From IMG/VR virus record IMGVR_UViG_3300045988_137393: 64,000 nucleotides of DNA, one strand, 5' to 3'. Origin of the DNA: a virus. Below the pieces are notes generated by a model. That model had not been told where the DNA came from, did not search any database, and saw nothing but the letters and a program-made list of their open reading frames with translations. Numbering within the stretch: position 1 is the stretch's first letter; the number at the start of each line of letters is the position of its first letter. Shown piece after piece: positions 22,440-62,778 of the stretch. Made by a program: the position numbers and the translations under genes.

Positions 22440-22472
22440 ATAGAAATTCGACTTTCCTTTGGAGGTGATATT

Positions 22473-22652
22473 TTGAAAAAAGTTAGATATGCGATTGAAA
22501 AAGTAATAGAAGTTCCTGAAACAGAAGGAGAAAAATCTATTAATAATATAATCAATAAAAAGTGTAAAGAAGAAAATGGATTAAGTTATATTTATGTAAG
22601 AGAAGATGATATGAAGGAAAATGGATGGAATAGCCTTTTTGATGAAATGTAA
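22473..22652 (+). CDS. hypothetical protein (59 aa), TTG start
   Basis: TTG 5 nt after GGAGGTGA, preceded by the TTTCCTTTGG motif. Below the track cutoff. Confidence 0.55.
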   Translation: MKKVRYAIEKVIEVPETEGEKSINNIINKKCKEENGLSYIYVREDDMKENGWNSLFDEM

Positions 22653-23474: not shown

Positions 23475-23711
23475 ATGACCAATGGCATTAAAGAGAAAGA
23501 CATTCGTGATATGCAAAAATGCTTTGATAAAATGGAATATATTCTAAAAAGGATTCAGGTGTATAATCCTGAAGCACGAATTATTTGTATTGAAAGTGAT
23601 ACAATAGCTCTAGTTAATTTCAATGGTGAGTTTATTGATTCAGCTCCACAAATAAAAGATGAACATATTGTTGCAAGTCAAGACATACCAGCAATGGATA
23701 ACTATTGTTAA
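23475..23711 (+). CDS. hypothetical protein (78 aa)
   Basis: ATG 7 nt after GGAGGTGA. Confidence 0.65.
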   Translation: MTNGIKEKDIRDMQKCFDKMEYILKRIQVYNPEARIICIESDTIALVNFNGEFIDSAPQIKDEHIVASQDIPAMDNYC

Positions 23712-23739
23712 AAGAAATGACGATTTCTTGGTAAATAGA

Positions 23740-24288
23740 ATGGAGATGATAAAAGTGAAAATAACCAAATTTAAAGATATTCCACAATTGACAAGAGCTG
23801 GATCATACAACACGAATATTCCATTAACTCACATGTTAAAAACGATTTCAGAATGGGAACAAGATGAATATTATCAGTTACAATTGAATCCTAATTTTCA
23901 GCGTGGACATGTATGGACGGAAAAACAACAAATAGCATTTGTTGAATTTTTACTTCGAGGAGGAAAATCAGCGAGGGTAATTTATTTTAATAAACCAAGT
24001 TGGCAAATGACGAAAACCGTAAATGATTATGATGATTTTGTATGTGTTGATGGTTTACAGAGAATTACAGCGGTAACTAAATTCTTAAAAAATGAAATTA
24101 AAGTTTTTGGTAGTTATTACAAAGATTTTGAAGATAAAATACCACTAAGTATAGATTTAATTTTCAATGTAAATGATTTAAAAACTGAAAAAGAGGTTCT
24201 TCAGTGGTATGTGGATATGAATGCAGGAGGTACTCCTCATACAAGTGAAGAAATTAACAGGATTAAGAAGATGATTGAGGAATTATAA
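23740..24288 (+). CDS. DUF262 (ParB-like/GmrSD N-terminal type) domain protein (~180 aa)
   Basis: LQLNPNFQRGHVWTEKQQIAFVEFLLRGG...VCVDGLQRITAV carries the DUF262 core with DGxQR. The start is ambiguous (ATG 23740/23746 or GTG 23755). Confidence 0.65.
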   Translation: MEMIKVKITKFKDIPQLTRAGSYNTNIPLTHMLKTISEWEQDEYYQLQLNPNFQRGHVWTEKQQIAFVEFLLRGGKSARVIYFNKPSWQMTKTVNDYDDFVCVDGLQRITAVTKFLKNEIKVFGSYYKDFEDKIPLSIDLIFNVNDLKTEKEVLQWYVDMNAGGTPHTSEEINRIKKMIEEL

Positions 24289-27448: not shown

Positions 27449-27477
27449 TTGACATATGATATGTATAAGTATATAAT
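27449..27477 (+). promoter_or_regulatory. consensus sigma-70 promoter (TTGACA-17 nt-TATAAT)
   Basis: TTGACA 27449-27454, exact 17-nt spacer, TATAAT 27472-27477. Sits ~70 nt upstream of the MazF-like gene. Confidence 0.75.
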
Positions 27478-27546
27478 GCAAAGCATAAGAAGTAGACAAA
27501 AGATAAAAACGTAGGACATTACATAAGAAGAAAGGAGGTAAAAGGA

Positions 27547-27912
27547 ATGACTGTAAACTTTGGGGATGTTATGATGATTGACTTTGGAGAAGACAAAATT
27601 AATTCGGTTCAAGTAGGAGTAAGACCAGGTGTGATCATTCAGAACGACATCGGGAACAAATATTCTCCAACCTCAATAGCTGTTCCTTTGACCAGTGAAA
27701 TCAAGAAATTAAATATGCCATGTCATAAAGTCCTACATATGAATGAACAAAATGGCTTGACGGAAGATTCAATGGTGCTTGGAGAGCAAGTAAGGGTAAT
27801 TGACAAAAATTCGATATTATACAAAATGGGCACTTTAAACGATGGTGAATGTGATCTTGTCGTTAAAGCATATTTTGCAAATGTACCTAGAAGGAGGGTT
27901 AGTTGTGGCTGA
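27547..27912 (+). CDS. PemK/MazF-family toxin-like endoribonuclease (121 aa)
   Basis: GDVMMIDFGEDKINSVQVGVRPGVIIQNDIGNKYSPTSIAVPLTSEIKK matches the MazF/PemK N-terminal signature. SD AAAGGAGG. Confidence 0.75.
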   Translation: MTVNFGDVMMIDFGEDKINSVQVGVRPGVIIQNDIGNKYSPTSIAVPLTSEIKKLNMPCHKVLHMNEQNGLTEDSMVLGEQVRVIDKNSILYKMGTLNDGECDLVVKAYFANVPRRRVSCG

Positions 27913-28261: not shown

Positions 28262-29999
28262 CCTAAAATGAAAAATTAAACCTGTACTTTGACAACTGAA
28301 AATGGCTATAAAAGGTCTAGTTTACTTTTTCTACAGCCCTTTCCAAGGCATGATATATTGGTTATATCGATTACTATCTGCTGGGAAAGGAGCAGATATG
28401 AATTATTACAATGCTAGCGGACAAATGGATCTGTCAGATCGAATAGCAATAGAAACTGGGATATGCATCGGGGAGTCATTCAAAAAAATAGCAAAAAGAC
28501 TTCGCAGACATCCATCTACTATTGCACATGAAGTTAAAGAAAACAGAACCTTCATTAAAGGTAATTACCCGAATGGAAAAGATTGCCGCATGGCAAGACA
28601 ATTCACAGTAAGGAATTTGTGCGGCTGTGATGAAGAAGCCTGTAATACAAAGTGTAGACTTTGCAGAGGAGTGGATTGTACCAAGGTATGCGATAGATAT
28701 GTATCAGTTGCTTGCCATAAGTTTGATTCGCCTCCGTATGTTTGTAATAACTGTAAGGATAAAAAGCTTTGCAACAAAGATAAGTATATTTACAGTGCGA
28801 AATTCGCTGATGCAGCTGTAACTCGTCGTAGATCGGAGAGTCGACAAGGAGTTAGACTTTCTGATGAAAAGAAGGAAGAATTGGATGAACTTGTGACTCG
28901 ACTTGTTAAGAAAGGCCAGCCTTTAACACACATATATGCAGAACATGAAAATGAAATGCCAGTGTGTTTGAGAACACTTTATAACTATATCGATGAAGGT
29001 GCCTTATCTATTAAAAACATAGATTTAAGAAGAAAGACAGGCTACAAACCACGAAAGAAAAAGTACAACGATATCAATGGATTTCACTCAATGGAGTATA
29101 GACAGTGTAGGACATATGAGGATTTTGAGTATGCGATGAAATTCAAATATTCAGAAGATGAAGTAACAGAAATGGATACTGTAAAAGGCGTTAGAGAATC
29201 TGGAAAGCGTTTGCTTACAATGATCTTTAGAAAGAACAACGTAATGCTACTATTCCTGATGCCAGATGGAAAAGCAGAATCCGTAAAAAGGGTTCTGGAC
29301 TATCTCGAGACAGGATTGGGAATAGATGTTTTTAGACGGTTGTTTCCGGTTATATTAACTGACAACGGCAGCGAATTCAAGAAGGTAGATGAGTTAGAAC
29401 TTACGCTGGATGAGGATGGCTTCCTAGTTTATAGAACAAGCCTTTATTACTGTGATCCAATGGCTTCATGGCAAAAAGGGTGTATCGAGAAGAATCATGA
29501 ATTTATTCGTTATGCCGTGCCAAAAGGAAAAAGCTTAAACCCATACACGCAAGAAGATATGACTTTATTAATGAATCATATCAATAGTGTAAAACGTCCT
29601 GGACTTGGAAATAAAAGTCCATACGAGCTCGTAGAAGAGGATGATGAAGATTTCAAAGCATTAATGTCATTATTAAAAATGCACCTCATCCCGCCAGATG
29701 AAGTGCATTTAATGCCAGATTTATTCGTTAAAAAGTAATTAGACCGAAGCTGCAGATAGTAATCGATTTGTCAATAGGTATTAAATAGACGGGTCGCATT
29801 TACTTTTGCATAACAAGTAGCCAGCCGTCTGTTAATCATGCAAACAAATATATACCTGCTATCTGGAATGCCTTAATTATAGCATGATATTTGAATTTGA
29901 ACATCCATTATTAGGGCTTTATTTGACCTTTATTTGACCTCAGAACAGAATTTTGATTATTAGACGTATTTTCAGTTGGGTTTTAGTTTTTCATTCAAG
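28262..29999 (+). mobile_element. IS30-family insertion sequence (~1.74 kb)
   Basis: Imperfect terminal inverted repeats: IRL CCTAAAATGAAAAATTAAACC..CAACTGAAAAT (28262-28303) against the reverse complement of 29966-30000, CCTTGAATGAAAAACTAAAACC-CAACTGAAAATAC. One DDE transposase ORF. Flanked by 14-bp direct repeats. Confidence 0.85.
28398..29738 (+). CDS. IS30-family DDE transposase (446 aa)
   Basis: N-terminal HTH LSDRIAIETGICIGESFKKIAKRLRRHPSTIAHEVKEN. TDNGSEF and WQKGCIEKNHEFIRYAVPKGKSL match IS30 catalytic-region signatures. ATG 7 nt after AAAGGAG. Confidence 0.85.
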   Translation: MNYYNASGQMDLSDRIAIETGICIGESFKKIAKRLRRHPSTIAHEVKENRTFIKGNYPNGKDCRMARQFTVRNLCGCDEEACNTKCRLCRGVDCTKVCDRYVSVACHKFDSPPYVCNNCKDKKLCNKDKYIYSAKFADAAVTRRRSESRQGVRLSDEKKEELDELVTRLVKKGQPLTHIYAEHENEMPVCLRTLYNYIDEGALSIKNIDLRRKTGYKPRKKKYNDINGFHSMEYRQCRTYEDFEYAMKFKYSEDEVTEMDTVKGVRESGKRLLTMIFRKNNVMLLFLMPDGKAESVKRVLDYLETGLGIDVFRRLFPVILTDNGSEFKKVDELELTLDEDGFLVYRTSLYYCDPMASWQKGCIEKNHEFIRYAVPKGKSLNPYTQEDMTLLMNHINSVKRPGLGNKSPYELVEEDDEDFKALMSLLKMHLIPPDEVHLMPDLFVKK

Positions 30000-30013
30000 G
30001 CAAACATGAACAA
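30000..30013. repeat. target-site duplication, right copy (GCAAACATGAACAA)
   Basis: Identical to 28248-28261. Confidence 0.8.
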
Positions 30014-30040
30014 GAAATCGAACAAACGTTTGCTTTACAC

Positions 30041-30069
30041 TTGACACAAACACATGTTTGGACTATGAT
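30041..30069 (+). promoter_or_regulatory. sigma-70-like promoter (TTGACA-17 nt-TATGAT)
   Basis: TTGACA 30041-30046, 17-nt spacer, TATGAT 30064-30069. Upstream of the tRNA cluster. Confidence 0.55.
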
Positions 30070-30266
30070 TATTGTTGTAAGAGAAATAATGGAAATAAAA
30101 AACAGTCCGAATGACGTGGCTGCAACCACATATGTCACTCAGACTGTAACTCAACCAACCAAGATTAAGTCATTACATATTTTGGCATAATTTTCCAGTT
30201 ATGTCAAGTTCAGTATGGCTAAAATCATAGCCTATTTCCAATATTTTATCAAAATTTAATATTTAT

Positions 30267-30339
30267 AGGGCATTCGCCAAGCGGAGAAGGCATTGCACTT
30301 TGATTGCAAAATTCATCAGTTCGAATCTGATATGCCCTG
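30267..30339 (+). tRNA. tRNA-Gln (anticodon UUG), no encoded CCA
   Basis: AGGGCAT-TC-GCCAAGCGGAGAAGGC-A-TTGCA-CTTTGAT-TGCAA-AATTC-ATCAG-TTCGAAT-CTGAT-ATGCCCT-G. The D-arm is near-identical to that of E. coli tRNA-Gln. Confidence 0.9.
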
Positions 30340-30498
30340 CTTTGTGACATTCCACCCGGTATGTTACAGAACGCAAGAGATTTCCTTGTAAGAGCAAAAT
30401 GTGTAGTTGCTAAAGTTCTACCATAGTTTAATCCACTAACGGATTACAAGCTGATACTATAGAACTTCCTGATAAACTTGCGATAGTGTCAGCTACTT

Positions 30499-30572
30499 GG
30501 ATCATTAGCACAATTGGTTAGTGCATTCGGCTCATAACCGAAAGGCTCAGAGTTCAAGTCTCTGATGATCCA
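30499..30572 (+). tRNA. tRNA with CAU anticodon (elongator Met or Ile2), no encoded CCA
   Basis: GGATCAT-TA-GCAC-AATTGGTTA-GTGC-A-TTCGG-CTCATAA-CCGAA-AGGCT-CAGAG-TTCAAGT-CTCTG-ATGATCC-A. Lacks the three G-C pairs of an initiator anticodon stem. Confidence 0.9.
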
Positions 30573-30597
30573 TTGCTAAATCAAACAAAGAGAGGAG

Positions 30598-31215
30598 ATG
30601 ATTACGTTGGCACAATATGTAATTACAGACGGTTCTCGTTGGATTATGAGAAATCGTAATGGTAAATATGTTCCAACATCTTGCGAGGCATTGGCTGATA
30701 CATTTTCAAATAAAGCAGCCAATAATCTATATAATAACTCGCTACCTAAAGCCTTGAAATCAGTATTTCATATCCAGAAAATTGATACCCCACCCGATAA
30801 TGTAAAGCAGATTACACAATCAGAAGTGGAAAATAATACCGAAAAAGTTATGGTTGCTGAAAATATCCAGAAATGGATTGACAAAATAACTGATCTTAAT
30901 GGATTAGCAACAGATGCATTACATAGAAAAGAAGAGTTGTGTGAAGAACTTAGCTTTGTAGACAGGGAATTATCCGATATCAATCATTATATAGAATTTT
31001 GTAATCTTAATGCAGCACAAGGATGGAAAGCATATAAGATGATAAAGGAACGGAGAATAAAAAGAAGAAGTATTAAAAATGAGATACAAATTCTTAACAT
31101 TATTCTTGATAAAAAGATTTCTGACACAGTTACAAATGAGATTTTGGAATCCATGTCGAAAATGGATAAGCGTACATATGAACCACGAGTAATGAACGAG
31201 CTGTTTGATTTGTAA
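30598..31215 (+). CDS. hypothetical coiled-coil protein (205 aa)
   Basis: ORF-track ORF. The ATG is very close to GAGGAG; alternative TTG at 30607. Confidence 0.65.
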   Translation: MITLAQYVITDGSRWIMRNRNGKYVPTSCEALADTFSNKAANNLYNNSLPKALKSVFHIQKIDTPPDNVKQITQSEVENNTEKVMVAENIQKWIDKITDLNGLATDALHRKEELCEELSFVDRELSDINHYIEFCNLNAAQGWKAYKMIKERRIKRRSIKNEIQILNIILDKKISDTVTNEILESMSKMDKRTYEPRVMNELFDL

Positions 31216-31228
31216 AGGAAGGATATAT

Positions 31229-31411
31229 ATGGTGATTTGTAAAAATTGTTATATTCCGATGATTGGAGTTATGTCGTTCTCAAAGGACAAGCATGAGAAA
31301 TTCTGTCGTTGTTCGAAATGTTGTTCAGAGACACGACATATAAAAATCAATGATAATGAGTTGAGTTTTGGAGAATATTTGTATAGAGAGTTAGACAGAA
31401 AAAGGAAATGA
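31229..31411 (+). CDS. small Zn-ribbon protein (60 aa)
   Basis: CKNC...CRCSKCC. ATG 8 nt after AAGGAAGG. Confidence 0.6.
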   Translation: MVICKNCYIPMIGVMSFSKDKHEKFCRCSKCCSETRHIKINDNELSFGEYLYRELDRKRK

Positions 31412-31421
31412 AGTAAGGCAG

Positions 31422-33629
31422 GTGCATGAAGTGAAAGACGAAATATTGCGTGAAAAATTAAATAATCTTTCATCACAACAGTTGGAATGGATTAATGAAT
31501 ACTGTGTAAATGATATGTCAAAATTGAAGAAAATTAGTTACAATGCATTTTTCAGGTATGGGATTCCAGCACATGAACATGACGAATTGTACGATGATGC
31601 AATGAATGTTCTGATGGAAAGTGTTATCAACTTTGATTCATCTCAAGGTGCGAGTTTTAAAACTTACCTTATTAATAATATTAAAAAATCTGTTATTGAC
31701 TGGTATAGAGACAACTATCAGAGATGTAAAAGAAAAAATCTATTAACTGATAAAAATGGAAAGATAGTAAAGGTTGATAAAAATGGAAATGTAACAGATG
31801 ACGATAAAGGAAAACCAGTTATTATTCCAGATACTTCATTTGATGCACCTACTGAAGAAGATAATGATTTAGTAGAAAAAATTGCATCTGACTTTAACGT
31901 AGAAGACAAGAGTGAGTTCGATTTTAGTGCCGATGAAAAAGTTGATAATTTTATTGATTCTTTGCCGAGGATACAAAAAAATATTTTGCTGATGCGGATG
32001 GAGAATGTTCCTGCTGATAATATAAAACAAAAATTGAATATATCAGACAGAGAATATAGTAGTGCTATGAAGTCAATTAAGATAAATAAAGGACTTTCAG
32101 TATTTTCAAAGAATAAAAATGATGGGAATTATGATGTGGAGGTAAATAATATGGAAGACAGAATTATTGAAATTAGCGAATCTGAAAATTACAGGACGGA
32201 CAAGTATAGCATGTATTCGTTGTTACAGGATAAGAAAAATGGAGACGTGAACTGCAACTACATCTTGCAACGTGAACCTTTTCAGTGGACTACAGAAGAA
32301 GCGAATAGATATTTTTGTCGTATTCTTAGTAATCTTCCTATTCCAGAAATTATTCTTTGTGAACAGAAGAAAAAGGGATTGACAATCTCTCATTTAATTG
32401 ACGGATTGCAGAGACTTTCATATGCTGAGGCATTCAAGGAAAATCGTATTAAGATTGGTTCAGCAGGAGCAGAGAGACATTTAATTCAGTATAGAGATTA
32501 TGTCTTAGATGATAATGGAAATCGTGTACTTGATGAAGATGGCTTACCAGAATATGAGATGAAAATATTTGATGTTATAGGGAAATATTATAAAGATCTT
32601 CCTGATGAGTTAAAGAAACGATTCAATAATTTCAATATAAACGTAACAAAATTCTTTGATTGTACAGATGAGCAGATTGCAGATCATATTCGTGATTATA
32701 ACAATCATGCGAGTATGAATAAGGAACAGGGTGGTTTTCTTAATGTATCTGCACAGACAGCGGGATATATTAAAAATATTTCACAGAAAAACACATTCTT
32801 TAAAAATTGTGGGAAGTTTACAGATAATAATGTTATTAAGGGAAAGTTGGAACGTGTTGTTGCAGAATCAATAATGTTAATGTTCTTCCGTGATTCATGG
32901 AAAGCAAAACTTGATACAATTTACAAATATGTTGATGAAAATGCAACAGAACAGCAGTTCTTAAAACTTAATTCACATTTTAATAGATTGGAATTAGCAT
33001 TAGGCGATGACAATAAAGACTTGAAGTCATTACTTACTCCAACTACAATGCCAATGTGGATTGCAGTATTTGATAAATTTACTACATATAATATTGAAGA
33101 TTCAAGATTCATTGATTTCTTAAGAGCATATAATACAGAACTTAAAGATAAAGAAGTTGATGGTGTATCTATGGCAGATTTTAAAGACCAACAGACAAAG
33201 AAAAAGGCAACTATTACAGGTAAAATTGATTTACTTATAAAACTGATGAATGAATTTTTACATATTGGTACAAGAGAAGTAAATAACACAGAATTGGAGA
33301 ATAACAATACGAAAGAAAGTGCTGAAGAAAATACGGAAGAAAGTGTTCTTTCCTTTGTTCAAGAAAATGCAAATCCAAATGTGACAGACGAAGATATAAA
33401 CCTTTACACAGACATGGTAGAAGATTGTGTTAAGATTGACGATCCAGTTTATAAAGAGTGTGGAATGGCATTAGTAGCACTCATGGCATATGCTTGTCAA
33501 AATGATAAGGATCAGGATTTTGAAAAATGGATTGAGAATTACAGAAATAAATCTGATTTTAGTTCATCACAGAAAGTTAATTATACATATATGAAACGCA
33601 GCTTTGATAATTTTATAGCAAATGCGTAA
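31422..33629 (+). CDS. sigma-70-family-like N-terminal module fused to a DUF262 (ParB-like) domain (735 aa)
   Basis: Region-2-like DELYDDAMNVLMESVINFDSSQGASFKTYLINNIKKSVIDWYRD. Region-4-like LPRIQKNILLMRMENVPADNIKQKLNISDREYSSAMKSI. Then the DUF262 core LQREPFQWTTEEANRYFCRIL...SHLIDGLQRLSYA. Confidence 0.65.
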   Translation: MHEVKDEILREKLNNLSSQQLEWINEYCVNDMSKLKKISYNAFFRYGIPAHEHDELYDDAMNVLMESVINFDSSQGASFKTYLINNIKKSVIDWYRDNYQRCKRKNLLTDKNGKIVKVDKNGNVTDDDKGKPVIIPDTSFDAPTEEDNDLVEKIASDFNVEDKSEFDFSADEKVDNFIDSLPRIQKNILLMRMENVPADNIKQKLNISDREYSSAMKSIKINKGLSVFSKNKNDGNYDVEVNNMEDRIIEISESENYRTDKYSMYSLLQDKKNGDVNCNYILQREPFQWTTEEANRYFCRILSNLPIPEIILCEQKKKGLTISHLIDGLQRLSYAEAFKENRIKIGSAGAERHLIQYRDYVLDDNGNRVLDEDGLPEYEMKIFDVIGKYYKDLPDELKKRFNNFNINVTKFFDCTDEQIADHIRDYNNHASMNKEQGGFLNVSAQTAGYIKNISQKNTFFKNCGKFTDNNVIKGKLERVVAESIMLMFFRDSWKAKLDTIYKYVDENATEQQFLKLNSHFNRLELALGDDNKDLKSLLTPTTMPMWIAVFDKFTTYNIEDSRFIDFLRAYNTELKDKEVDGVSMADFKDQQTKKKATITGKIDLLIKLMNEFLHIGTREVNNTELENNNTKESAEENTEESVLSFVQENANPNVTDEDINLYTDMVEDCVKIDDPVYKECGMALVALMAYACQNDKDQDFEKWIENYRNKSDFSSSQKVNYTYMKRSFDNFIANA

Positions 33630-33663
33630 TCAATTTGGTAATAAGCAATAGCTTTTACATAAA

Positions 33664-33704
33664 AGATGGGCAACGATATGTCGTGAAGTTGCTGTTGCCC
33701 ATCT
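33664..33704 (+). terminator. strong hairpin (11-bp stem) downstream of the sigma-DUF262 gene
   Basis: AGATGGGCAAC..GTTGCCCATCT. No clear T-run. Confidence 0.5.
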
Positions 33705-33895
33705 CGCATATCAACTAGGAATAATCCAGAAGTCGATATACATATATAGTATCTCATTTCTATGGCTGAATCAATATCCAAATGACATTCTTCTCGTTCT
33801 GAGTTGGATTATTCCATTATTAAAAATGGTAAATGAACAGAAATTAAAATAGAAATATCAAAATAAAGTTCGTTTCTTTAGAAGAGAGGTGAAAG

Positions 33896-34306
33896 ATGAA
33901 AATTATGGGAACAATTCGTAGATTTGACGACTTAGGTAGAATAGTAATTCCAAAGGAAATTAGAAGACTGGTGTTTGGAAAAGCAGACGCAATTGGTGAG
34001 CCAATGGAAATATTTATTGACGGAGGAAATGTTGTACTCCGAAGATACGAGGAAATACAAACTTGTAAATGGATAAAATACGATTATAGAACGATTTGCC
34101 CGAAAGAACATGACGATGCTGATGATCCATATTGGAGGATACCTGAAAATATGGCAAATTTAAAATATTGTCCTTATTGTGGCAAAGAGATAGTTGTTGT
34201 AAATAAAATCACAGTAAAACTTCGTTTCATTGTAAAAAATTTCTGGGCAATTCAGCTCAATAAAATTCCCAAATTAAAAAGAGAATATAGATATGTAACC
34301 AATTAA
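33896..34306 (+). CDS. AbrB/SpoVT-type DNA-binding domain protein with C-terminal Zn-ribbon (136 aa)
   Basis: GTIRRFDDLGRIVIPKEIRRLVF is the AbrB/MazE swapped-hairpin signature. CPYCGK near the C-terminus. Confidence 0.7.
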   Translation: MKIMGTIRRFDDLGRIVIPKEIRRLVFGKADAIGEPMEIFIDGGNVVLRRYEEIQTCKWIKYDYRTICPKEHDDADDPYWRIPENMANLKYCPYCGKEIVVVNKITVKLRFIVKNFWAIQLNKIPKLKREYRYVTN

Positions 34307-34346
34307 CATTCATATATAAAAATTATAGAAAAGGATAGTAAAACAG

Positions 34347-36947
34347 ATGAATGGATTGAGTAGTAAAGAAGTTCTCAAAAGTAGAGAGCTTCATGGAAGT
34401 AATAAGCTTCCTGAACCAAAGTTGGACAAGTGGTATGACTTCGCAAAGGAGGCATTAAGTGAGAAAATCACAATGATTCTTATTGCAATTGCAGTATTAC
34501 AGTTATTCCTTGGAGTCATGGGATTAATGGATTTATCAGATCCAATTATGATTCTTGTTGTATTAGCAATTGTAACATGTATTGCTGTTAAGACTGGACT
34601 TGGTGTTCAAAAATCAGCAGCAGAGTTGAGAGCCAAAACATCAGTCAGGTATTGTGACGTAATTCGTGATGGCAAAGTTCAAACAATTAATAAGGATGAA
34701 TTGGTAGTTGGTGATATTGTTTGTGTAGGAATGGGACAAGAGATTTTTGCAGATGGATATCTCATTGAAGGTAAGATTTCTGTAAACAATGCAGCTATTA
34801 ATGGAGAAACAAAAGAGTGTAAGAAAACACCAATTGAAGGATACGTTCATAAGAAAACTACTTCAACAGATGCTTATACGAATAAGAATTGCTTATTTGC
34901 TGGCACAACAGTAATGTCAGGCGAAGGAAAAATGATTGTTACTGATGTAGGTGTGAATACAGTAAATGGTGATACACTTGTTAAAATGCAAACACTTGAA
35001 GCACCAAAGACAGCACTTGATATTGCACTTGATAATCTGAGTGACTTCATTTCTAAGTGGGGAACAATCGCAGCCGTTATTACATTTGCGGTACTTACAA
35101 TTTCAGGAATTGTGCAGGTTGGATTTGGAGAATATTTTAGCGGTGGCGTTCTGAATATTATTCAGAAAATTGCACAGAACTTCTCAGTAGCATTAACAAT
35201 TATTGTAGCTGCTGTTCCCGAAGGATTGCCTCTTATTGTAAAACTTGTAACAAAACAGAATGTAAAGACAATGGAGAAATTCAATATTCTTGCTAAGAAT
35301 CCTGGTAAAATTCCAGAGTTAGCATATGTTGATATTATCTGTACTGATAAGACAGGTACTCTTACGACAGGTGTTATGACTCCAAAGAAGATTATTGATG
35401 GCTTTGGTAACGATGTAAATAAGGATTCAGTTCTTTGGAATAATATCAAGGCAAACATTTCTTTAAATAATAGTGCAACATTTGATTCAGAAAACAATAT
35501 TACAGGTGGTAATTCAATTGATAGAGCAGTTCTTAGCCTTGTAAATCCTGAAACATATGCTGACATTCAGAAAAAATATCCAGTTAAGTTAAAGCAGGTA
35601 TTTAATAGTAGTAATAAGTATTCAGCTTTTACGACAAAGGATGGAATTACATACTATAAGGGTGCACCTGAGAAACTGATTGAGCATTGCACAAAAGTAA
35701 TGGACTCAAGTGATAAAATTGTAGACAATAACGACAATGACACATTAAGTAATGCAATTACAGCAATGACAAGTAATGCAATGAGATGTATTGCAGTTAC
35801 AATGGCAGATGGTGATTTAGTAGAGAATGAAATACCGAATGATATGACATTCCTTGGAATTATTGGTGTTGTAGATCCTGTAAGAGATGAAGTACCGAGT
35901 GCAGTAAAAACAGCACATAAGGCTGGTATTCAAGTTATTGAAATTACAGGCGATTGTATTGAGACAGCAGTTGCAGTTGCTACAGAGTGTGGAATTTACA
36001 AAGATGGAGATTTAGCACTTACAAATGATGAATTTGAAGCGATGTCAGATGATGAAGTAAAGAGTATAATTCCTCGATTGAGAGTTATTTCAAGGTGTTC
36101 ACCAAACACAAAACTCAGACTTGTCACATTAGCACAGGAGATTGGAAAATCAGTTGCAATGACAGGTGATGGAGTAAATGATAGTCCTGCTTTAAAGAGA
36201 GCCGATGTTGGTTTTGGTATGCAAGGTGGTTCAGATGTTGCAAAAGAAGCATCAGATATTGTATTAACAGATGATAACTTTGCAAGCGTTGTAAAGGCAG
36301 TAGAACTTGGAAGAACATTTATGCACAATATTATGATGTTCCTTGAATTCCAGTTACCTATCAATATTTCACTTCTGATTCTCAGTGTTATCTATCCAAT
36401 GATTGTAACAGGTGCATTGCTCGCTTCAGTTCAGATTCTGATTGTAAATATCATTATGGATTCCCTTAATTCACTATCATTCGGTGGCGAACCACCAAAA
36501 GATGAGTATATGACAGAGAAACCTATCAAGAAGGGTTCTGGCTTATTCATTAGAGGAGCAAAGAAACGTATTGCAATTAGTACAGTAGCATTTATTGTAC
36601 TCTATGGAATTATTACATTTAGTCCAATTTCAGATATGTTTGCAACTGAAACAGAGGCTATAACAGCGAGATTTGCATTATTATGTTTCATGGCTGTATT
36701 TAATGGATTTAACATTCGTACAGAGCATATTAATTTATTCAATGGTATTGGAAAGAACAAGTTATTTTCAGCCATTGCAATCGGAATTTTTGTAATGACG
36801 ATTGCTCTTTGTAGCTTTGCGGAAAATCTTATTAAGGTCACAGCTTTAGATTTCAAACATTGGGTAGTAGTTGTAATTTTAGCCTTTATGGTTATTCCAA
36901 TTGATCTTATCAGAAAGATTATTGAGAAGAAAAGAGAGAATAAGTAA
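34347..36947 (+). CDS. P-type (P2-like) cation-transporting ATPase, probably Ca2+ (866 aa)
   Basis: N-terminal LSSKEVLKSRELHGSNKLPEPK. Phosphorylation site ICTDKTGTLT. Hinge MTGDGVNDSPALKRADVGFGM. PEGLP in M4. Multiple TM segments. Confidence 0.9.
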   Translation: MNGLSSKEVLKSRELHGSNKLPEPKLDKWYDFAKEALSEKITMILIAIAVLQLFLGVMGLMDLSDPIMILVVLAIVTCIAVKTGLGVQKSAAELRAKTSVRYCDVIRDGKVQTINKDELVVGDIVCVGMGQEIFADGYLIEGKISVNNAAINGETKECKKTPIEGYVHKKTTSTDAYTNKNCLFAGTTVMSGEGKMIVTDVGVNTVNGDTLVKMQTLEAPKTALDIALDNLSDFISKWGTIAAVITFAVLTISGIVQVGFGEYFSGGVLNIIQKIAQNFSVALTIIVAAVPEGLPLIVKLVTKQNVKTMEKFNILAKNPGKIPELAYVDIICTDKTGTLTTGVMTPKKIIDGFGNDVNKDSVLWNNIKANISLNNSATFDSENNITGGNSIDRAVLSLVNPETYADIQKKYPVKLKQVFNSSNKYSAFTTKDGITYYKGAPEKLIEHCTKVMDSSDKIVDNNDNDTLSNAITAMTSNAMRCIAVTMADGDLVENEIPNDMTFLGIIGVVDPVRDEVPSAVKTAHKAGIQVIEITGDCIETAVAVATECGIYKDGDLALTNDEFEAMSDDEVKSIIPRLRVISRCSPNTKLRLVTLAQEIGKSVAMTGDGVNDSPALKRADVGFGMQGGSDVAKEASDIVLTDDNFASVVKAVELGRTFMHNIMMFLEFQLPINISLLILSVIYPMIVTGALLASVQILIVNIIMDSLNSLSFGGEPPKDEYMTEKPIKKGSGLFIRGAKKRIAISTVAFIVLYGIITFSPISDMFATETEAITARFALLCFMAVFNGFNIRTEHINLFNGIGKNKLFSAIAIGIFVMTIALCSFAENLIKVTALDFKHWVVVVILAFMVIPIDLIRKIIEKKRENK

Positions 36948-36963
36948 TTGAGGAGATGAGAGC

Positions 36964-37167
36964 ATGGTAAGGAGAGATAAAAGTTATAAAAAAGTAGAGA
37001 TTATTACTATTATATGCTTTTCAATTAGTGTTATTACAGTATGTATTACACGCTTTATTCCATTTATTTTTCTGACGTTACTCACATTCCCAATTTCTTT
37101 TAAATTATTAAAAGGGAAGGTTGACAGCCTTCCCAAGAATAAGGAGGACAAACAATATGTCAATTAG
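36964..37167 (+). CDS. small membrane protein (67 aa)
   Basis: ATG 8 nt after AGGAG. Two hydrophobic segments. Confidence 0.55.
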   Translation: MVRRDKSYKKVEIITIICFSISVITVCITRFIPFIFLTLLTFPISFKLLKGKVDSLPKNKEDKQYVN

Positions 37168-37735
37168 TTTAGTTAAAGGTCAGAAGATTGACCTTACAAA
37201 AGGTAATGCAGGTTTAAACAAAGTCGTATTTGGTCTTGGATGGGATACAAATAGATACGATGGTAATGCAGATTTCGATTTGGATGTATCAGCATTTTTT
37301 ACTGATGATTCAGGAAAGGTAACAGGCGAACAGGATTTTGTATTTTATGGTCAGCCACAGCATCCAAGCGGAGCATTGATTTATTCTGGCGATAATAGAA
37401 CAGGTGTAGGTGATGGCGATGACGAGACAATGATTGTTGAGTTAAATAAGATTCCATCTAATATTACAAAGATTAGCTTCTCAGCGACAATTTATGATGC
37501 AGAAAATCGTTTACAGAATTTCGGAATGGTTGATAATTCGTACATTAGAGCATACAACGCTGATACAAATGAGGAACTTTTCAAATATGAACTTAATGAG
37601 GATTTCTCATTAGAGACAGGTGTTATTGCAGGTGAGTTGTATCGTAAGAACGGTGAATGGAAGTTTAATGCAGTTGGTTCAGGTTACAATGGTGGTTTAG
37701 CTGCTATTGGTAGAAATTTTGGTCTTGATTTATAA
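37157..37735 (+). CDS. terD: TerD-family (tellurium-resistance/Ca2+-binding) protein, paralog 1 (192 aa)
   Basis: MSISLVKGQKIDLTK..GLGWD..DFDLDVSAF..GDNRTGVGDGDDE..GEWKFNAVGSGY. ATG 8 nt after AAGGAGG. Confidence 0.9.
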   Translation: MSISLVKGQKIDLTKGNAGLNKVVFGLGWDTNRYDGNADFDLDVSAFFTDDSGKVTGEQDFVFYGQPQHPSGALIYSGDNRTGVGDGDDETMIVELNKIPSNITKISFSATIYDAENRLQNFGMVDNSYIRAYNADTNEELFKYELNEDFSLETGVIAGELYRKNGEWKFNAVGSGYNGGLAAIGRNFGLDL

Positions 37736-37753
37736 AATGGAAGGAGAATATAT

Positions 37754-38329
37754 ATGTCAGTAAATTTAGTAAAAGGACAGAAAATTAATTTATCTAAGGA
37801 AGTAGCAGGTGGTCTTACAAAGATTATGGTAGGACTTGGATGGGATGCTGCTAAGAAAGGATTATTTGGTTCTAAGCCAAACATTGATTGCGATGCTTCA
37901 GCAATTATTTTAGGAAAAGATGATAAGTATCGCACATGTGTTTATTATGGTGACAGATCAGCGGAAGACAGATGTGTGTATCATCATGGCGACAACCTCA
38001 CAGGAGATGGAGACGGTGATGATGAGCAGATTACAGTTGATCTTGCGAATATTACAAATAAGGTTGAGAAGATTGTATTTGTAGTAAATATCTATGATTG
38101 TATTTCAAGAAAGCAGGATTTTGGACTTATCAAGAATGCGTACATTAGACTTGTTGATGAGTCAACTGGTAAGGAAATTTGTAAATACAATCTTTCAGAT
38201 GATTATGCTGGCAAGACAGCAATGATATTTGCAGAGGTTTATAAGAAAGACGGAGAGTGGAAATTTAACGCTATCGGTCAGGGAACAAATGATTCAAGTG
38301 TTAGCGAATTAACAAGAAGATACAAATAG
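37754..38329 (+). CDS. terD: TerD-family protein, paralog 2 (191 aa)
   Basis: MSVNLVKGQKINLSK..GLGWD..GDNLTGDGDGDDE..GEWKFNAIGQG. Confidence 0.9.
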   Translation: MSVNLVKGQKINLSKEVAGGLTKIMVGLGWDAAKKGLFGSKPNIDCDASAIILGKDDKYRTCVYYGDRSAEDRCVYHHGDNLTGDGDGDDEQITVDLANITNKVEKIVFVVNIYDCISRKQDFGLIKNAYIRLVDESTGKEICKYNLSDDYAGKTAMIFAEVYKKDGEWKFNAIGQGTNDSSVSELTRRYK

Positions 38330-38341
38330 GAGGATTTAATT

Positions 38342-38923
38342 ATGTCAGTTTCGTTAAGTAAAGGACAGAGAGTAGATTTAACAAAGGGTAGACCGTCATT
38401 AAAAAACATTCTTGTTGGACTTGGATGGGATATTAATCATTATGATGGAGAAGCAGATTTTGACCTCGATGCATCCGTGTTTATGACAAAAGAGAATGGT
38501 AAGGTTGGCAAGGATGAGGATTTCATTTTCTATGGTAATCTTGAACATAGTTCAAAGAGTGTAAAGCATATGGGAGATAACCGTACAGGTGAGGGAGATG
38601 GAGATGATGAGGTTATTAAGATTAAACTTGATAAAATCCCATCAGACTACGAGACTCTTGCTGTGACGGTCACAATTTATGATGCTGAGAGTAGACTTCA
38701 GAACTTCGGTATGGTTGGAAATGCATATGTGCGTGTAGTAGACGAAGAGACAGGCGAGGAACTTATTCGTTTTGATTTAAGTGAAGACTTCTCTACCGAG
38801 ACTGCGTTAGTCGTAGCTGAAATTTATAAACATAATGGTGAATGGAAGTTTAAGGCTGTAGGAAGTGGCTATAACGGTGGATTAAAAGCATTATGTAATC
38901 AGTATAGAATTGATGCAGAGTAG
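38342..38923 (+). CDS. terD: TerD-family protein, paralog 3 (193 aa)
   Basis: MSVSLSKGQRVDLTK..GLGWD..GDNRTGEGDGDDE..GEWKFKAVGSGYNGGLKALC. Very close to the B. subtilis YceD pattern. Confidence 0.9.
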   Translation: MSVSLSKGQRVDLTKGRPSLKNILVGLGWDINHYDGEADFDLDASVFMTKENGKVGKDEDFIFYGNLEHSSKSVKHMGDNRTGEGDGDDEVIKIKLDKIPSDYETLAVTVTIYDAESRLQNFGMVGNAYVRVVDEETGEELIRFDLSEDFSTETALVVAEIYKHNGEWKFKAVGSGYNGGLKALCNQYRIDAE

Positions 38924-38932
38924 GAGGATTGT

Positions 38933-39682
38933 ATGACAAATTTTATGTTTATTATAATTGTGGCGATTGTATTAATTGCACTGATCCTTTTCTTTACTCC
39001 TTTTGGTAAACAGCTTCGAGTAAAATTTAAAGGAAGAACGGATGAAGTGATGCGTCAGGATGCACAGACACCAGAAGGTGCTAGAGATTATTACAATGCA
39101 GCCATTAGAGAAAAGGAAGACTTTTATAACAAGGCATCTGCTACATATGCTGAAATTTCAGGAAAGCGTGATACAGCAGAAAAAGACTTATATCAGGCGA
39201 ATAAAGATATTATGCGTGTTACACAGCAGATTAATGCTTGTCTTGATGAAAATAAAGAAAATGAAGCAATGCAGTATGCAATGAAGAAGTCTACTTTGGA
39301 GAATAAGATTAATGTACTAAAAGATACAATTGAAGAGATGAAAGAAGCACAGGTTCACCAAAAAGACATTCGTGATCAGGTAGCCGAAGAATTGCAGAAA
39401 CTTAAAGAGGAAAAGGAACAGGTTCTTTTTCAGATGGAAGCTGATAGTCAGATTATCGAACTTCATCAGAGTATGGATAGTCTTAATACGAATAATGAGA
39501 GCGATAGAATGCTTGAAAGAGTTCGTGAAGGAGCAAGAAAGACAAGAGAACGTGCAGAAGGAAGTAGAATTGCATATGATTCTAGCGCACAGGCTAATGA
39601 GAGAAGACTTGCTAATTCTGAAAGAGAGCGCAATGCTCGTCAGATCCTTGATGATATGAAGAGACAGAGGGGTAATAAGTAA
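38933..39682 (+). CDS. membrane-anchored coiled-coil protein, PspA/IM30-like (249 aa)
   Basis: N-terminal TM FMFIIIVAIVLIALILFF, then long heptad-rich helices resembling PspA/LiaH. TelA-like is not excluded. Confidence 0.5.
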   Translation: MTNFMFIIIVAIVLIALILFFTPFGKQLRVKFKGRTDEVMRQDAQTPEGARDYYNAAIREKEDFYNKASATYAEISGKRDTAEKDLYQANKDIMRVTQQINACLDENKENEAMQYAMKKSTLENKINVLKDTIEEMKEAQVHQKDIRDQVAEELQKLKEEKEQVLFQMEADSQIIELHQSMDSLNTNNESDRMLERVREGARKTRERAEGSRIAYDSSAQANERRLANSERERNARQILDDMKRQRGNK

Positions 39683-41292: not shown

Positions 41293-42702
41293 ATGAAAAG
41301 ATTGAAAATTGAAATTCCATCTGGTGCAAATGAAATTATCCATAGTCTACAAAACAATGGATATGAAGCTTTCTTAGTTGGAGGGTGCGTAAGAGATAGT
41401 ATTCTTGGCAGAATAATTCACGATTATGACATTACAACTTCTGCCACACCAGATGAAATGATGGAAGTATTTAAGGATAAAAGAATTATTGAAACTGGAT
41501 TACAACATGGAACTATTACCATTATAATTGACGGTGAAGGATATGAATGTACCACTTACAGAATTGACGGTAATTACTCAGATAGTCGTAGACCTGATAG
41601 CATAACATTTACACGAAATCTTAAAGAAGATTTAAAGCGTAGAGATTTTACAATCAATGCGATGGCATACAATGATGAAGTTGGACTTGTAGATCCGTTT
41701 AATGGCATGGAAGATATTGAGCATTATAAAATCAGATGTGTTGGTAGAGCAGAGGATAGATTTTCAGAAGATGCTTTAAGGATTTTACGTGCTATTCGGT
41801 TTGCTTCACAACTGGGATTTGTCCTTGAACCTGATACAGATTGGAATATCTCTAAAATGTATAAGAATTTGGAGAATATATCTATTGAAAGGATCAATAG
41901 TGAGTTCTGTAAAATTGCTGCATCGAGTGATTTCTGTGTACAAATGGTCTTATATCACGAAGTATTCTCATTGTTCATTCCTGAAATTAAAGATATGTTT
42001 GGCTTTCAACAGAATAATCCATATCACATGTATGATGTATGGAATCATACCGTACATGCAGTACAAGCATATTCTTGTGATTGTGAAGAAGACTTAAATC
42101 CAATAGATTTAATTACGTCATTAGCGGTGTTCTTTCATGACATAGGAAAGCCACACTGTTATCAAGACGGTGAGGATGGCATTAGACATTTTAAAGGGCA
42201 TGGAAAAGTCAGTGCTGATATGACTGATACAATTATGAAAAGACTTCGTTTTGATAATGATACAAGAGAAAAAGTAGTGCAGCTTGTTTATTATCATGAT
42301 GCAACTTTTGAAGTGGGTGAAAAGTATATCAAGAGATGGCTCAATAAGATTGGAGAAGAACAATTTAGAAGATTACTGAATGTTCGTAGAGCTGATATTA
42401 AAGCGCAGGCTTATACAGAGCAAGAGAGTAGGCTTCAGAAAATTGACAATATCGAATATATCTTAGAGGAAGTTTTACAGAAAGACGAATGTTTCTCACT
42501 GAAAGATTTGGCTGTTAATGGCAATGATTTGATTGAGATTGGATATAAGCCAGGAAAAGAAATAGGGAATACACTGAATTGTCTTTTACAGTTAGTAATT
42601 GAAGGTGTATATCTAAACGAGAAAAGTGAGTTACTTAAATATGTTGAGACAACAAAAGAATGGATGAAGTTAGGAGAGAATTATAATGGTAAGATTATTT
42701 AG
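41293..42702 (+). CDS. cca: CCA-adding enzyme (class II tRNA nucleotidyltransferase with HD domain) (469 aa)
   Basis: GGCVRDSILGR, HDYDITT, EDLKRRDFTINAMAY, and the C-terminal HD motif FFHDIGKPH. Confidence 0.88.
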   Translation: MKRLKIEIPSGANEIIHSLQNNGYEAFLVGGCVRDSILGRIIHDYDITTSATPDEMMEVFKDKRIIETGLQHGTITIIIDGEGYECTTYRIDGNYSDSRRPDSITFTRNLKEDLKRRDFTINAMAYNDEVGLVDPFNGMEDIEHYKIRCVGRAEDRFSEDALRILRAIRFASQLGFVLEPDTDWNISKMYKNLENISIERINSEFCKIAASSDFCVQMVLYHEVFSLFIPEIKDMFGFQQNNPYHMYDVWNHTVHAVQAYSCDCEEDLNPIDLITSLAVFFHDIGKPHCYQDGEDGIRHFKGHGKVSADMTDTIMKRLRFDNDTREKVVQLVYYHDATFEVGEKYIKRWLNKIGEEQFRRLLNVRRADIKAQAYTEQESRLQKIDNIEYILEEVLQKDECFSLKDLAVNGNDLIEIGYKPGKEIGNTLNCLLQLVIEGVYLNEKSELLKYVETTKEWMKLGENYNGKII

Positions 42703-43609
42703 CCACAGTGATTTAGACGGAATCGGTTGTGCAGTTTTGGCAAAACTTGCATTTGGTAAAGATGTAGATATTTCATACTGTGATTACGACAATATTGATT
42801 CAACTGTAAAGGAATATTTGGAAACAGAACAGGACGACACAATCCCAATTTATATTACCGATATTCGTGTCAATGAAGAAACTGCTGAGTTGCTAAATAA
42901 AAGAGGCAATGTTCAGTTATTAGATCATCATCCAACAGCTCTTGGATTAAATAAGTATGATTGGTGTGATGTAGTTATCGAAGATTCCAAAGGAATTAAA
43001 ACATCGGGAACTATGTTGTTTTATCATTGGTTAGGTATGAATGGTAGCCTGAGTGAAGAGTTAGAGAATAATAATGCGTTAGAGAGATTTGCTGAATTAG
43101 TGAGAGATTATGACACTTGGAGATGGTCAGAACTTGGTGAAGATGGAGTTATTTGTAAGCAGGTGAACGATTTACTTTATCTGTATGGTCGAGATGATTT
43201 TATTCATTGGTGTATTTCGGAGATACGTGGTGAAATATTCCCATTGTTATCTGCTAAAGATGAGGTTGTTCTGAAGATTAAGCAGGATGAAATTGATAGA
43301 TATATCAAGGAGAAGAATGAAACCATGTTTACCAGTCCTATGTGTGGTAAGGTTTGTGGTTTTGTATTTGCAGATAGGTTTGTTAGTGAATTAGGTAATA
43401 GACTTTGTAAAATGCATCCTGAAATTGATTTTGTGGCAATGATTGATATTGATGGTTGTACGGTATCTTATAGAACCGTTAAAGAAGATATTGATCTTGG
43501 TAAAGATGTAGCAAGTTTATTTGGTGGCGGTGGTCATCCAAAAGCTGCTGGTTCAGAATTTGGTCAGAGTATTAAGTTGAAAATTATTGGGGAAATCTTT
43601 GGACAGTGA
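42686..43609 (+). CDS. DHH/DHHA1-family phosphoesterase (NrnA-like) (307 aa)
   Basis: SHSDLDGIGCA (motif I), ITDIR (II), LDHHP (III), GGGGHPKAAG (DHHA1). Overlaps cca by 17 nt. Confidence 0.8.
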   Translation: MVRLFSHSDLDGIGCAVLAKLAFGKDVDISYCDYDNIDSTVKEYLETEQDDTIPIYITDIRVNEETAELLNKRGNVQLLDHHPTALGLNKYDWCDVVIEDSKGIKTSGTMLFYHWLGMNGSLSEELENNNALERFAELVRDYDTWRWSELGEDGVICKQVNDLLYLYGRDDFIHWCISEIRGEIFPLLSAKDEVVLKIKQDEIDRYIKEKNETMFTSPMCGKVCGFVFADRFVSELGNRLCKMHPEIDFVAMIDIDGCTVSYRTVKEDIDLGKDVASLFGGGGHPKAAGSEFGQSIKLKIIGEIFGQ

Positions 43610-48062: not shown

Positions 48063-48105
48063 CAAAAACTATCAAGAAATTTTGGTTTCCTATGGAGGTG
48101 GTCTG

Positions 48106-48312
48106 TTGGAATTAGACAGAGCAATAAGAATCATAAATCATGATATTGATGAAAATGCGTCAGAATCAGAACAATTAGAAGCATTTAAAGTATTCTTTAA
48201 AGAATTATTTGATACAGATATACAAAATAGTGATGGTGGATATAGAAGTATCTATGATGTATTTTCAGAAGCAAGCAAAAAATACAATCAAAAAAACGAC
48301 AAAGGTGATTGA
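48106..48312 (+). CDS. hypothetical protein (68 aa), TTG start
   Basis: TTG 7 nt after GGAGG. Confidence 0.55.
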   Translation: MELDRAIRIINHDIDENASESEQLEAFKVFFKELFDTDIQNSDGGYRSIYDVFSEASKKYNQKNDKGD

Positions 48313-53183: not shown

Positions 53184-53192
53184 GAGTTATTT

Positions 53193-54077: not shown

Positions 54078-54223
54078 TTATATAAGTAGTATTTCAGTTG
54101 GTGATTTAAAATCTATTCTCTAAAGAAGAAGGTCTTAAAGATTGGTGTGCTTATATCAATGGCGTAAAAGCCGATGACGATTTTAGAGAGATTAGGTTGG
54201 TGAATTAAGTTAGGAGAATAAAT

Positions 54224-57972: not shown

Positions 57973-58007
57973 CAAGAAATTTTTCTTTCCTTTGGAGGTG
58001 ACTGAAA

Positions 58008-62314: not shown

Positions 62315-62326
62315 ATAAAAAAGGAC

Positions 62327-62353: not shown

Positions 62354-62358
62354 AAGTA

Positions 62359-62742: not shown

Positions 62743-62778
62743 GCACAAAAATTATTAATTTTCCTTGGAGGTGAAAAA

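Follow-up and report, generated by a model that had tools for sequence, protein, structure and literature searches.

The window considered here, a 64,000-nucleotide stretch of viral DNA from the IMG/VR record IMGVR_UViG_3300045988_137393, carries at positions 31422-33629 a gene whose product is a minimal sigma-70-family factor tied to a nuclease-less DUF262 domain and to helical middle and C-terminal domains. An earlier sequence-only reading had proposed such a sigma::DUF262 fusion, and the open reading frame (ORF) is real: Pfam matches for both domains lie above their cut-offs, and a domain check with AlphaFold and Foldseek agrees with them. From comparative sequence evidence we propose, at slightly less than even chances, that the protein acts as an early phage sigma factor gated or targeted by its nucleoside triphosphate (NTP)- and DNA-binding ParB-like partner. 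The source is an uncultured human-gut phage lineage with genomes of ~150-176 kb that is abundant in human-gut viromes.

The window has a G+C content of ~32%, and nearly all of its genes lie on the + strand, as do the fusion gene, its domains and the upstream features described below. ORF 31422-33629 is an intact single gene with a GTG start that encodes 735 amino acids (aa). Gene callers applied to near-identical contigs choose an alternative GTG at 31431, 9 nt further 3' and preceded by the ribosome-binding site AAGGCAGG, giving 732 aa. AlphaFold run on the single sequence returned a pLDDT of 36.7, and a model built with an alignment was used instead; with 131 homologues, pLDDT rose to 90.2 and pTM was 0.69, the low-confidence segments being aa 155-160, 235-244 and 621-638. 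The layout begins with a sigma2 domain (~aa 18-104; 31473-31733), supported by Pfam Sigma70_r2, Foldseek matches to SigE and RpoS sigma2, and conservation. It is followed by a linker (aa 105-171; 31734-31934) that holds a DKNG-repeat insertion and a conserved 'SLD' segment, recognized by conservation and by alignment to SigA (7l7b), and by a sigma4 helix-turn-helix (HTH) domain (~aa 172-228; 31935-32105) supported by Pfam, the family profile and conservation. A flexible interdomain linker (aa 229-256; 32106-32189), defined by the model and by the division point in split relatives, leads to the predicted DUF262/ParB-Srx-fold NTP-binding domain (aa 257-440; 32190-32741), which was identified with Pfam GmrSD_N, PADLOC NsnA and Foldseek. 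The helical middle domain (aa 441-615; 32742-33266) is modelled as all-helical with high confidence, and the C-terminal helical domain (aa 642-735; 33345-33626) comes after a disordered acidic linker (aa 616-641).

Judged by its sequence and its modelled fold, the N-terminus is a bona fide sigma-70-family module composed of sigma2, a region-3.2-like linker and sigma4, as the sequence-only reading had supposed, and not a generic HTH. Pfam Sigma70_r2 matches aa 43-98 with 28.3 bits (curated cut-off 24), and phrog_351, annotated as 'RNA polymerase sigma factor', matches with an E of 5e-12. When the profile of an alignment of the window protein and 130 relatives was searched against all PDB sequences, the significant matches were sigma factors only; the best was sigma-H (3mzy, E 2e-10), aligned from sigma2 through sigma4, and dozens of SigA, RpoS and RpoD chains came after it. 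The alignment of this profile to SigA (7l7b) passes through the conserved family segment SLD.P...L.D.I, which in cellular sigma factors lies at the junction of regions 3.2 and 4.1. Foldseek searches of the PDB with the model recovered the sigma2 domain of SigE (TM 0.76 over the target, rmsd 2.5 A, probability 0.99), with RpoS sigma2, SigH and SigB likewise among the matches. Across 95 N-modules, conserved motifs were found in sigma2 (DDxYSxAxxVL...YD and F..L..I..K), in the linker (NRxKR and SLD..G..D.I.S.F) and in sigma4 (YLxSLSxxQRxI...GY..EI..L.I). Furthermore, Sigma70_r2 matches 24 of 68 diverse fused relatives at E <= 1e-3, Pfam Sigma70_ECF matches 7 of the same set, and Sigma70_r4_2 or GerE was found in relatives at 1e-5 to 1e-6. 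Where the halves are separate genes, the sigma half is an ordinary sigma of 193-228 aa standing by itself, and that of locus L060 reaches 32.3 bits on Sigma70_r2. Note that a tandem 27-nt repeat at 31748-31801 (aa 110-127) encodes DKNGKIVKV/DKNGNVTDD within the sigma linker; this insertion is lineage-specific, and the split sigma of locus L052 does not have it.

The second half of the protein matches Pfam GmrSD_N/DUF262 at aa 281-422 (34.2 bits, cut-off 33.2), and the same family matches 47 of the 68 diverse fused relatives. In the fused set, conservation reaches 90% or more at Q283, R284, E314, D327, G328, Q330, R331 (the DGxQR motif) and N427, and R284, G328 and N427 show no variation. A nucleotide-pocket role for these motifs in the DUF262 superfamily is described in PMC12065111, and at the level of conserved residues the predicted pocket is retained in the fusion. 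Fold comparison placed BrxU at the top of the PDB matches (Foldseek E 1e-3, probability 0.91) and also matched SspE. Matches to the ParB-CDP/ParB-CTP and Noc complexes had probabilities of 0.3-0.5 and low TM on this multi-domain query; whole-chain TM scores are low because the query consists of several flexibly linked domains. DUF262 entries were absent from the PDB sequence searches, whether made with the single protein or with the profile, and were matched by the fold search alone. The middle domain probably corresponds to 'ParBDB', through which NsnA, DndB, GmrSD and SspE bind DNA, given the long BrxU and SspE alignments and what PMC12065111 says of these proteins.

Since DUF262 scores above the Pfam cut-off and BrxU and SspE are among the top structural matches, the protein could be taken for a modification-dependent restriction nuclease of the GmrSD/BrxU/SspE type with an N-terminal DNA-binding extension. 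We find this very improbable. DUF1524/HNH had no match in the window protein at E <= 1 and none in the 68 diverse fused relatives, the tail is almost wholly helical and has no conserved His or Asn catalytic pattern (the columns conserved at 90% or more include no histidine), and the PADLOC models of GmrSD, BrxU and SspE gave no match. An earlier remark that no DUF1524/HNH motif could be seen is therefore borne out. The sole PADLOC match of the fusion was Menshen NsnA (E 1.6e-10), and it covers the DUF262 part only (aa 238-419).

The family is widespread in metagenomes. Searches at E <= 1e-3 matched 925 clusters at 90% identity, and 709 clusters matched at 50% identity; one exact sequence is present on 94 contigs. 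In IMG/VR, the family occurs on viral contigs that are mostly 90-160 kb long. The only record in the GenBank phage collection is MT835469, an unannotated 176-kb human-faecal phage whose homologue (765 aa, 27% identical) has the same architecture and neighbours as in the window. This genome also encodes a sigma-less paralogue of the DUF262-tail part (MT835469.1, 154203-155195, - strand; 330 aa, E 2e-40 to the hidden Markov model (HMM) of the C-module), which lies inside locus L095, remote from the main locus. A megablast search with 25 kb of the window against phage and plasmid collections gave no match, nor did a tblastn search with the sigma half alone against cultured phages, and no relatives were found in a scan of GTDB species-representative genomes.

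Approximately half of the 50%-identity clusters are long (~680-780 aa) and half are short (~460-560 aa), the latter corresponding to query residues 255-735 only and possibly including truncated gene calls. Once the loci of the short forms had been fetched, an HMM for each half was used to sort the full set of 91 loci, giving 51 fused, 38 split and 2 C-only loci, the C-only loci being a distant Bacillus-phage DUF262 protein and a truncated contig. No long DUF262 module without a sigma gene was found among loci with intact flanks. In each split locus, the DUF262-tail gene is preceded by a sigma-like gene of ~160-230 aa, the two lying end to end except in 2 loci, and the split point falls at the low-confidence linker of the fused protein (aa 229-256). 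The split genes often overlap by 4 nt (stop/start), or the second gene has its own AGGAGG, as in L052 and L054; such overlaps and separate Shine-Dalgarno sequences point to functional coupling, not to an assembly artefact. On an approximate neighbour-joining tree built from the DUF262 core, at least 12 changes between fused and split states are required. The halves are thus adjacent and coupled in sister phages, a 'Rosetta stone' pattern that marks them as one functional unit. Consequently, the gene arrangements evidently reflect a biological fusion of two halves that act together. In the locus L082, a GIY-YIG-like homing-endonuclease ORF (178 aa; 4185-4721) lies between the split sigma and DUF262 genes, and in L089 the gap between these genes is enlarged; insertion of a mobile element may be one route from fused to split genes.

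That the 38 split loci encode the halves separately is also what could be expected if the fusion were an assembly or annotation artefact that joined neighbouring genes. The probability of this is negligible. The ORF runs uninterrupted in the window, as it does in 51 loci that stem from many independent samples, the repeated exact sequence mentioned above adds to this recurrence, fused forms range from 23 to 100% identity to the window protein, and the modelled junction between the sigma and DUF262 parts is a plain flexible linker (pLDDT <50 at aa 235-244). Recurrence of the uninterrupted ORF in independent samples effectively refutes the artefact. The fusion therefore occurs in other phages (51 loci, and roughly half of the clusters at 50% identity), and its parts are not separate genes in all relatives.

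Comparison of closely related phages revealed that the locus is a mosaic. Loci L052 and L054 share 88-98% nucleotide identity with the window on both flanks. Their similarity ends at 31374, at the 3' end of the small upstream gene U2, and returns at 33221 (~codon 600 of the fusion), after which L052 is 98% identical to the window. Within the gap, identity drops to 24-26% for the sigma halves and to ~30% for DUF262 and the middle domain; the last ~130 residues are ~97-100% identical where sigma is 26%. Across loci, which are not phylogenetically independent, identity to the window correlated strongly between DUF262 and middle domain (r = 0.98) and between sigma and DUF262 (r = 0.85). The identity of the middle domain thus tracks that of DUF262. 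The C-terminal domain showed little correlation with DUF262 (r = 0.08) or the middle domain (r = 0.18), and larger values with U2 (r = 0.78) and with its neighbour U1 (r = 0.53). Together, the identity breaks and the correlations indicate that the gene consists of at least three exchangeable blocks, namely sigma, DUF262 plus middle domain, and the C-terminal domain. Covariation of this kind suggests that the C-terminal domain probably contacts a product encoded nearby, with U2 as the first candidate.

Upstream of the fusion lies a sigma-70-type promoter-like site (30041-30069; TTGACA-17-TATGAT) that matches the consensus at 11 of 12 positions and for which a promoter function is presumed. Between this site and the module lie a tRNA-Gln (UUG; 30267-30340) and a tRNA-Met (CAU; 30498-30573), the latter 24 nt upstream of U1 (30598-31215; 205 aa). 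U2 (31229-31411) has the ribosome-binding site AAGGAAGGA and encodes a 60-aa zinc ribbon with a CxxC...CxxC pattern. The arrangement suggests that the string of tRNAs, U1, U2 and fusion would be transcribed early by the host RNA polymerase from the 30041-30069 site. Of the 84 loci whose upstream flank is long enough, 74 have homologues of both U1 and U2 immediately before the sigma module, and D122, D127, H130, K160, Y194 and R197 are invariant in U1. The sole library match of U1 was phrog_32601 (function unknown); no Pfam, NCBIfam, PADLOC or PDB family was matched by U1 or U2, the profile-based Pfam and PDB searches having been made for U1 only. The sequence-only reading had noted these two small genes, correctly, and had placed in them possible anti-sigma-like partners. 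This second suggestion found no backing beyond conserved synteny: neither gene matched a family, and the zinc ribbon co-varies with the C-terminal domain, not with sigma.

These patterns lead us to the following scheme for an early sigma factor under the control of its partner. Both halves of the idea have precedents, taken up below: ECF sigma factors controlled in cis by fused domains, ParB-family NTP switches acting on transcription, DUF262 as a DNA sensor, and T4 Alc. Once the host RNA polymerase has transcribed the string early from its host-type promoter, the sigma part would attach to the core of that polymerase, with sigma2, the 3.2-like linker and sigma4 making the contacts. Binding of DNA and nucleotide would fall to the DUF262 and middle domains, and NTP binding or hydrolysis would serve as a switch that could work through dimerization, clamping or the release of autoinhibition. 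Such a switch would set when, or on which DNA, sigma acts, possibly the phage's own methylated or replicating genome, and the C-terminal domain would dock a conserved partner, for which the zinc-ribbon protein U2 is the first candidate. In a more specific form of the proposal, which we regard as possible and rather doubtful, sigma is tethered to an NTP-gated ParB-like DNA sensor or clamp, so that promoter use by the host RNA polymerase is governed by which DNA is present or what state it is in (phage or host, methylated or unmethylated, loaded or unloaded). The exchangeable sigma, DUF262 and C-terminal blocks would then set specificity between competing phages.

Several observations weigh against a gated early sigma factor. 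That the fusion binds RNA polymerase, recognizes promoters and binds NTP and DNA is in each case inferred. The match of the window protein to Pfam Sigma70_r4_2 (aa 173-210) is weak, at 12.4 bits, and that to the NCBIfam sigma70-ECF model TIGR02937 (aa 43-218), at 41.6 bits, falls narrowly below the cut-off of 42.9. No candidate for a cognate promoter motif of the fusion sigma was found in the window, nor was a DNA hypermodification pathway, methyltransferases and one unassigned radical-SAM protein being all that was seen there. Searches for this sigma family found a single member in the 64-kb window and a single one in the 176-kb genome MT835469, which speaks for the scheme, but sigma factors of other families may exist elsewhere in the phage genome. 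Above all, identities of 24-26% in sigma and ~30% in DUF262 between phages with 90-98% identity in their flanks are awkward for an essential middle or late sigma, as genome-wide promoters would need to keep pace with the swapped sigma. A general late sigma should not be swappable unless its alleles share specificity or act on few co-transferred sites, and a block-wise allelic pattern is more typical of conflict or specificity genes.

It is because of this allelic replacement that two other explanations are kept. In one of them, which we consider unlikely on balance, the locus is a phage conflict module for superinfection exclusion, defence or counter-defence, in which an NsnA-like sensor detects foreign or modified DNA and the sigma-like part provides the output, for example by capturing the host RNA polymerase core and shutting down or redirecting transcription, with U1 and U2 as accessory components. 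Menshen NsnA is indeed the closest match in the defence library, and PMC12065111 reports many alternative N-terminal DNA-binding sensor domains on NsnA proteins. The gene also lies in an accessory region that holds an IS30 insertion and the TerD and PspA cargo and encodes an integrase, an HTH protein and a MazF/PemK-like toxin, and both the strong block-wise replacement between near-identical phages and the homing-endonuclease-like gene inserted in the L082 split locus fit a conflict gene. However, no NsnB ATPase, NsnC effector or recognizable toxic effector adjoins the module in any locus, and its syntenic position is kept even where the copy is 27% identical, which gives it the look of a core gene and not of a dispensable island. 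Furthermore, the full sigma2-linker-sigma4 layout is conserved, a layout that a mere DNA sensor would not need.

The other explanation holds that the protein is a DNA-bound regulator or maintenance protein resembling ParB, KorB or DndB, in which the sigma-derived domains serve as HTH only, without engaging RNA polymerase, and which acts as a repressor, anti-silencer, partition factor or immunity factor at few sites. ParB-family NTP switches do control transcription without being sigma factors (PMC11790492, PMC10770331, PMC12409273). The ParB-like protein and the integrase of this element are signs of a temperate or plasmid-like lifestyle, and the cassette-like exchange is reminiscent of phage immunity regions. 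We nevertheless hold this regulator to be quite unlikely, as sigma2 and the 'SLD' segment, the elements that contact RNA polymerase, are conserved; we know of no role outside the holoenzyme for sigma2 combined with a region-3.2-like 'SLD' segment. In addition, no convincing parS-like palindrome or repeat array was found within or beside the exchanged cassette. Two weak inverted repeats were detected in 30000-34400, one inside U1 and one inside the coding sequence of the fusion, with no repeat array.

The sequence-only reading had further imagined that the fusion reads recurrent intergenic motifs of this genome, and this was left unsupported. Enrichment of 8-mers in intergenic DNA is weak. The element AGAGAATAW occurs in 33 copies in the window against 5.2 expected, 30 of them on the + strand (for example at 36935, 43614, 43821, 58772, 59705 and 62230), and was rejected as a motif of this sigma: its flanks are not conserved, and copies often lie at gene ends, where they encode Arg-Glu-stop, or just after them. 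A different element, AGAAAT-N6-TTTCYTTTGGAGGTGA, is found directly upstream of start codons at 22442-22475, 48065-48108, 57965-58008, 62318-62361 and 62738-62775. It forms a small GAAA/TTTC stem-loop that abuts the ribosome-binding site and is possibly an RNA processing or translational control signal.

Other genes of the window deserve mention. Two further relatives of the partner domain that had been reported at the outset are present: a small stand-alone DUF262 protein is encoded by ORF 23659-24288 (GmrSD_N, E 2e-11), and the protein at 7553-8500 is ParB-like by PHROG 1033 (E 7e-9), although it had no Pfam match at E <= 0.01. The genes downstream of the fusion, which include TerD genes, a P-type ATPase and an AbrB-like gene, differ from locus to locus, and neither an ATPase nor an effector is conserved beside the module. 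The ORF directly 3' of the fusion (33896-34306) combines an AbrB/SpoVT-like N-terminal domain with a zinc-ribbon-like C-terminus, and the gene called in relatives is shorter (104 aa). At 34347-39682 lies cargo that is unusual for a phage: an 866-aa P-type cation ATPase, three TerD-family genes in tandem and a PspA/IM30-like gene. Its place is taken in some relatives by other genes, such as OrfB_IS605/Cas12f-like and DUF8224 genes. On the upstream side, an IS30-family transposase insertion (28262-29996; ORF 28302-29738, with HTH_38 and a weak rve match) separates a MazF-like toxin pair from the tRNA/sigma string, and in otherwise near-identical relatives without it the sequence is joined across. 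A perfect sigma-70 consensus, TTGACA-17-TATAAT (27449-27912 region), lies directly upstream of the MazF/PemK-like toxin gene (27547-27912); the next ORF (121 aa, function unknown) overlaps that gene.

An RNA and tRNA repair set is distributed over 41293-43609 and 52020-54637. It includes a CCA-adding/poly(A) polymerase-family enzyme, a DHH phosphoesterase, an RNA ligase (PHA02142 OB and RNA_ligase), a polynucleotide-kinase-like P-loop kinase and the peptidyl-tRNA hydrolase PTH2, and its composition suggests a defence against host tRNA-cleaving systems. ARAGORN called an odd tRNA of undetermined anticodon at 3809-3896. This call accounts for one of two tRNA-like 3' ends (GGTTCGAnTCC...), that upstream of the ORF start at 3933; the other, at ~4780-4800 with no tRNA called, precedes the ORF start at 4860. 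These ends may represent additional or degenerate tRNA genes.

In literature searches, no sigma2-sigma4 factor fused to DUF262 or ParB, or paired with either, came to light, and the view that the architecture had not been described before held up accordingly. The nearest published item is the sigma-70 region-1.1-like domain that appears among the variable N-termini of NsnA in the available part of PMC12065111. Sigma factors and ParB/DUF262 NTPases have each been well studied, but the two have not been described as dedicated, obligate partners. Should the DUF262 half gate or target sigma, this would be a new form of viral control over host RNA polymerase, and the DUF262 branch, familiar so far from restriction and defence, would gain its first role in transcription. 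Annotation is affected as well: public records label these proteins 'sigma-70 family' (JGI), 'ECF sigma/anti-sigma complex' (GenBank third-party) or 'DUF262 domain-containing protein' (UniProt/BFVD), that is, as sigma factor or as DUF262, never both. The natural fused and split versions and the domain-swap alleles make the family experimentally tractable.

A close parallel in organization is provided by the ECF sigma factors of groups ECF41, ECF42 and ECF56, in which a regulatory domain fused to the C-terminus controls sigma in cis and stands in for a separate anti-sigma factor (PMC3426412, PMC8999054). As in these groups, a minimal sigma2-sigma4 unit and a large C-terminal domain share one polypeptide. 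In the fusion, however, a ParB/DUF262 domain plus two helical domains form the extension, and not a SnoaL-like, TPR or zinc-finger domain, and the protein is phage-encoded and alternates between fused and split forms. In addition, the window protein falls just below the sigma70-ECF cut-off and, unlike ECF factors, keeps a linker segment of the 'SLD' kind resembling that of group 1 and group 3 sigma factors.

On the side of the DUF262 domain, PMC12065111 presents NsnA as a nuclease-less ParB-DUF262 protein with a helical DNA-binding 'ParBDB' domain, and DUF262 as a DNA sensor in SspE, GmrSD and NsnA. The fusion resembles Menshen NsnA, notably that of type II as described there, in combining ParB-DUF262, a helical domain, an N-terminal DNA-binding module and no nuclease. 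It differs in having an additional C-terminal domain, in the absence of genes for the NsnB ABC ATPase and the NsnC effector next to the module in every locus examined, and in its full sigma2-linker-sigma4 layout, the region-1.1-like domain being the only sigma-like element among the Menshen N-termini in the accessible portion of that paper. With GmrSD, BrxU and SspE, its top structural neighbours, the protein shares the DUF262 fold and the QRxxxW and DGxQR motifs, but it is without the DUF1524 His-Me nuclease that defines them. Since it lacks a nuclease as well as NsnB and NsnC, the fusion belongs neither to the GmrSD-type enzymes nor to the Menshen systems.

Transcriptional control on mobile elements by NTP switches of the ParB family is exemplified by KorB (PMC11790492), VirB (PMC10770331) and BisD (PMC12409273). 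Like these proteins, and also like DndB, the fusion places a predicted ParB/Srx-fold nucleotide-binding domain beside an HTH on a mobile element. In contrast, KorB, VirB and BisD are not sigma factors and act from parS-like loading sites, of which none was found here, and their domain order differs. To our knowledge, the DUF262 branch does not form CTP-gated sliding clamps.

A conceptual parallel is offered by phage T4. Its late transcription depends on the gp55 sigma, the gp33 co-activator and the gp45 sliding clamp. The T4 protein Alc restricts transcription to modified phage DNA, as cited in PMC7824862. In the T4 proteins, as in the arrangement proposed here, a phage sigma would depend on a partner that is bound to DNA or reads its state. 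There is no sequence or fold relationship between the two, and the partner of the fusion is a predicted ParB-like NTPase and not a PCNA-like clamp. If sigma is truly tethered to an NTP-gated sensor or clamp, the fusion would represent a one-polypeptide counterpart of the sigma, co-activator and sliding-clamp logic of T4.

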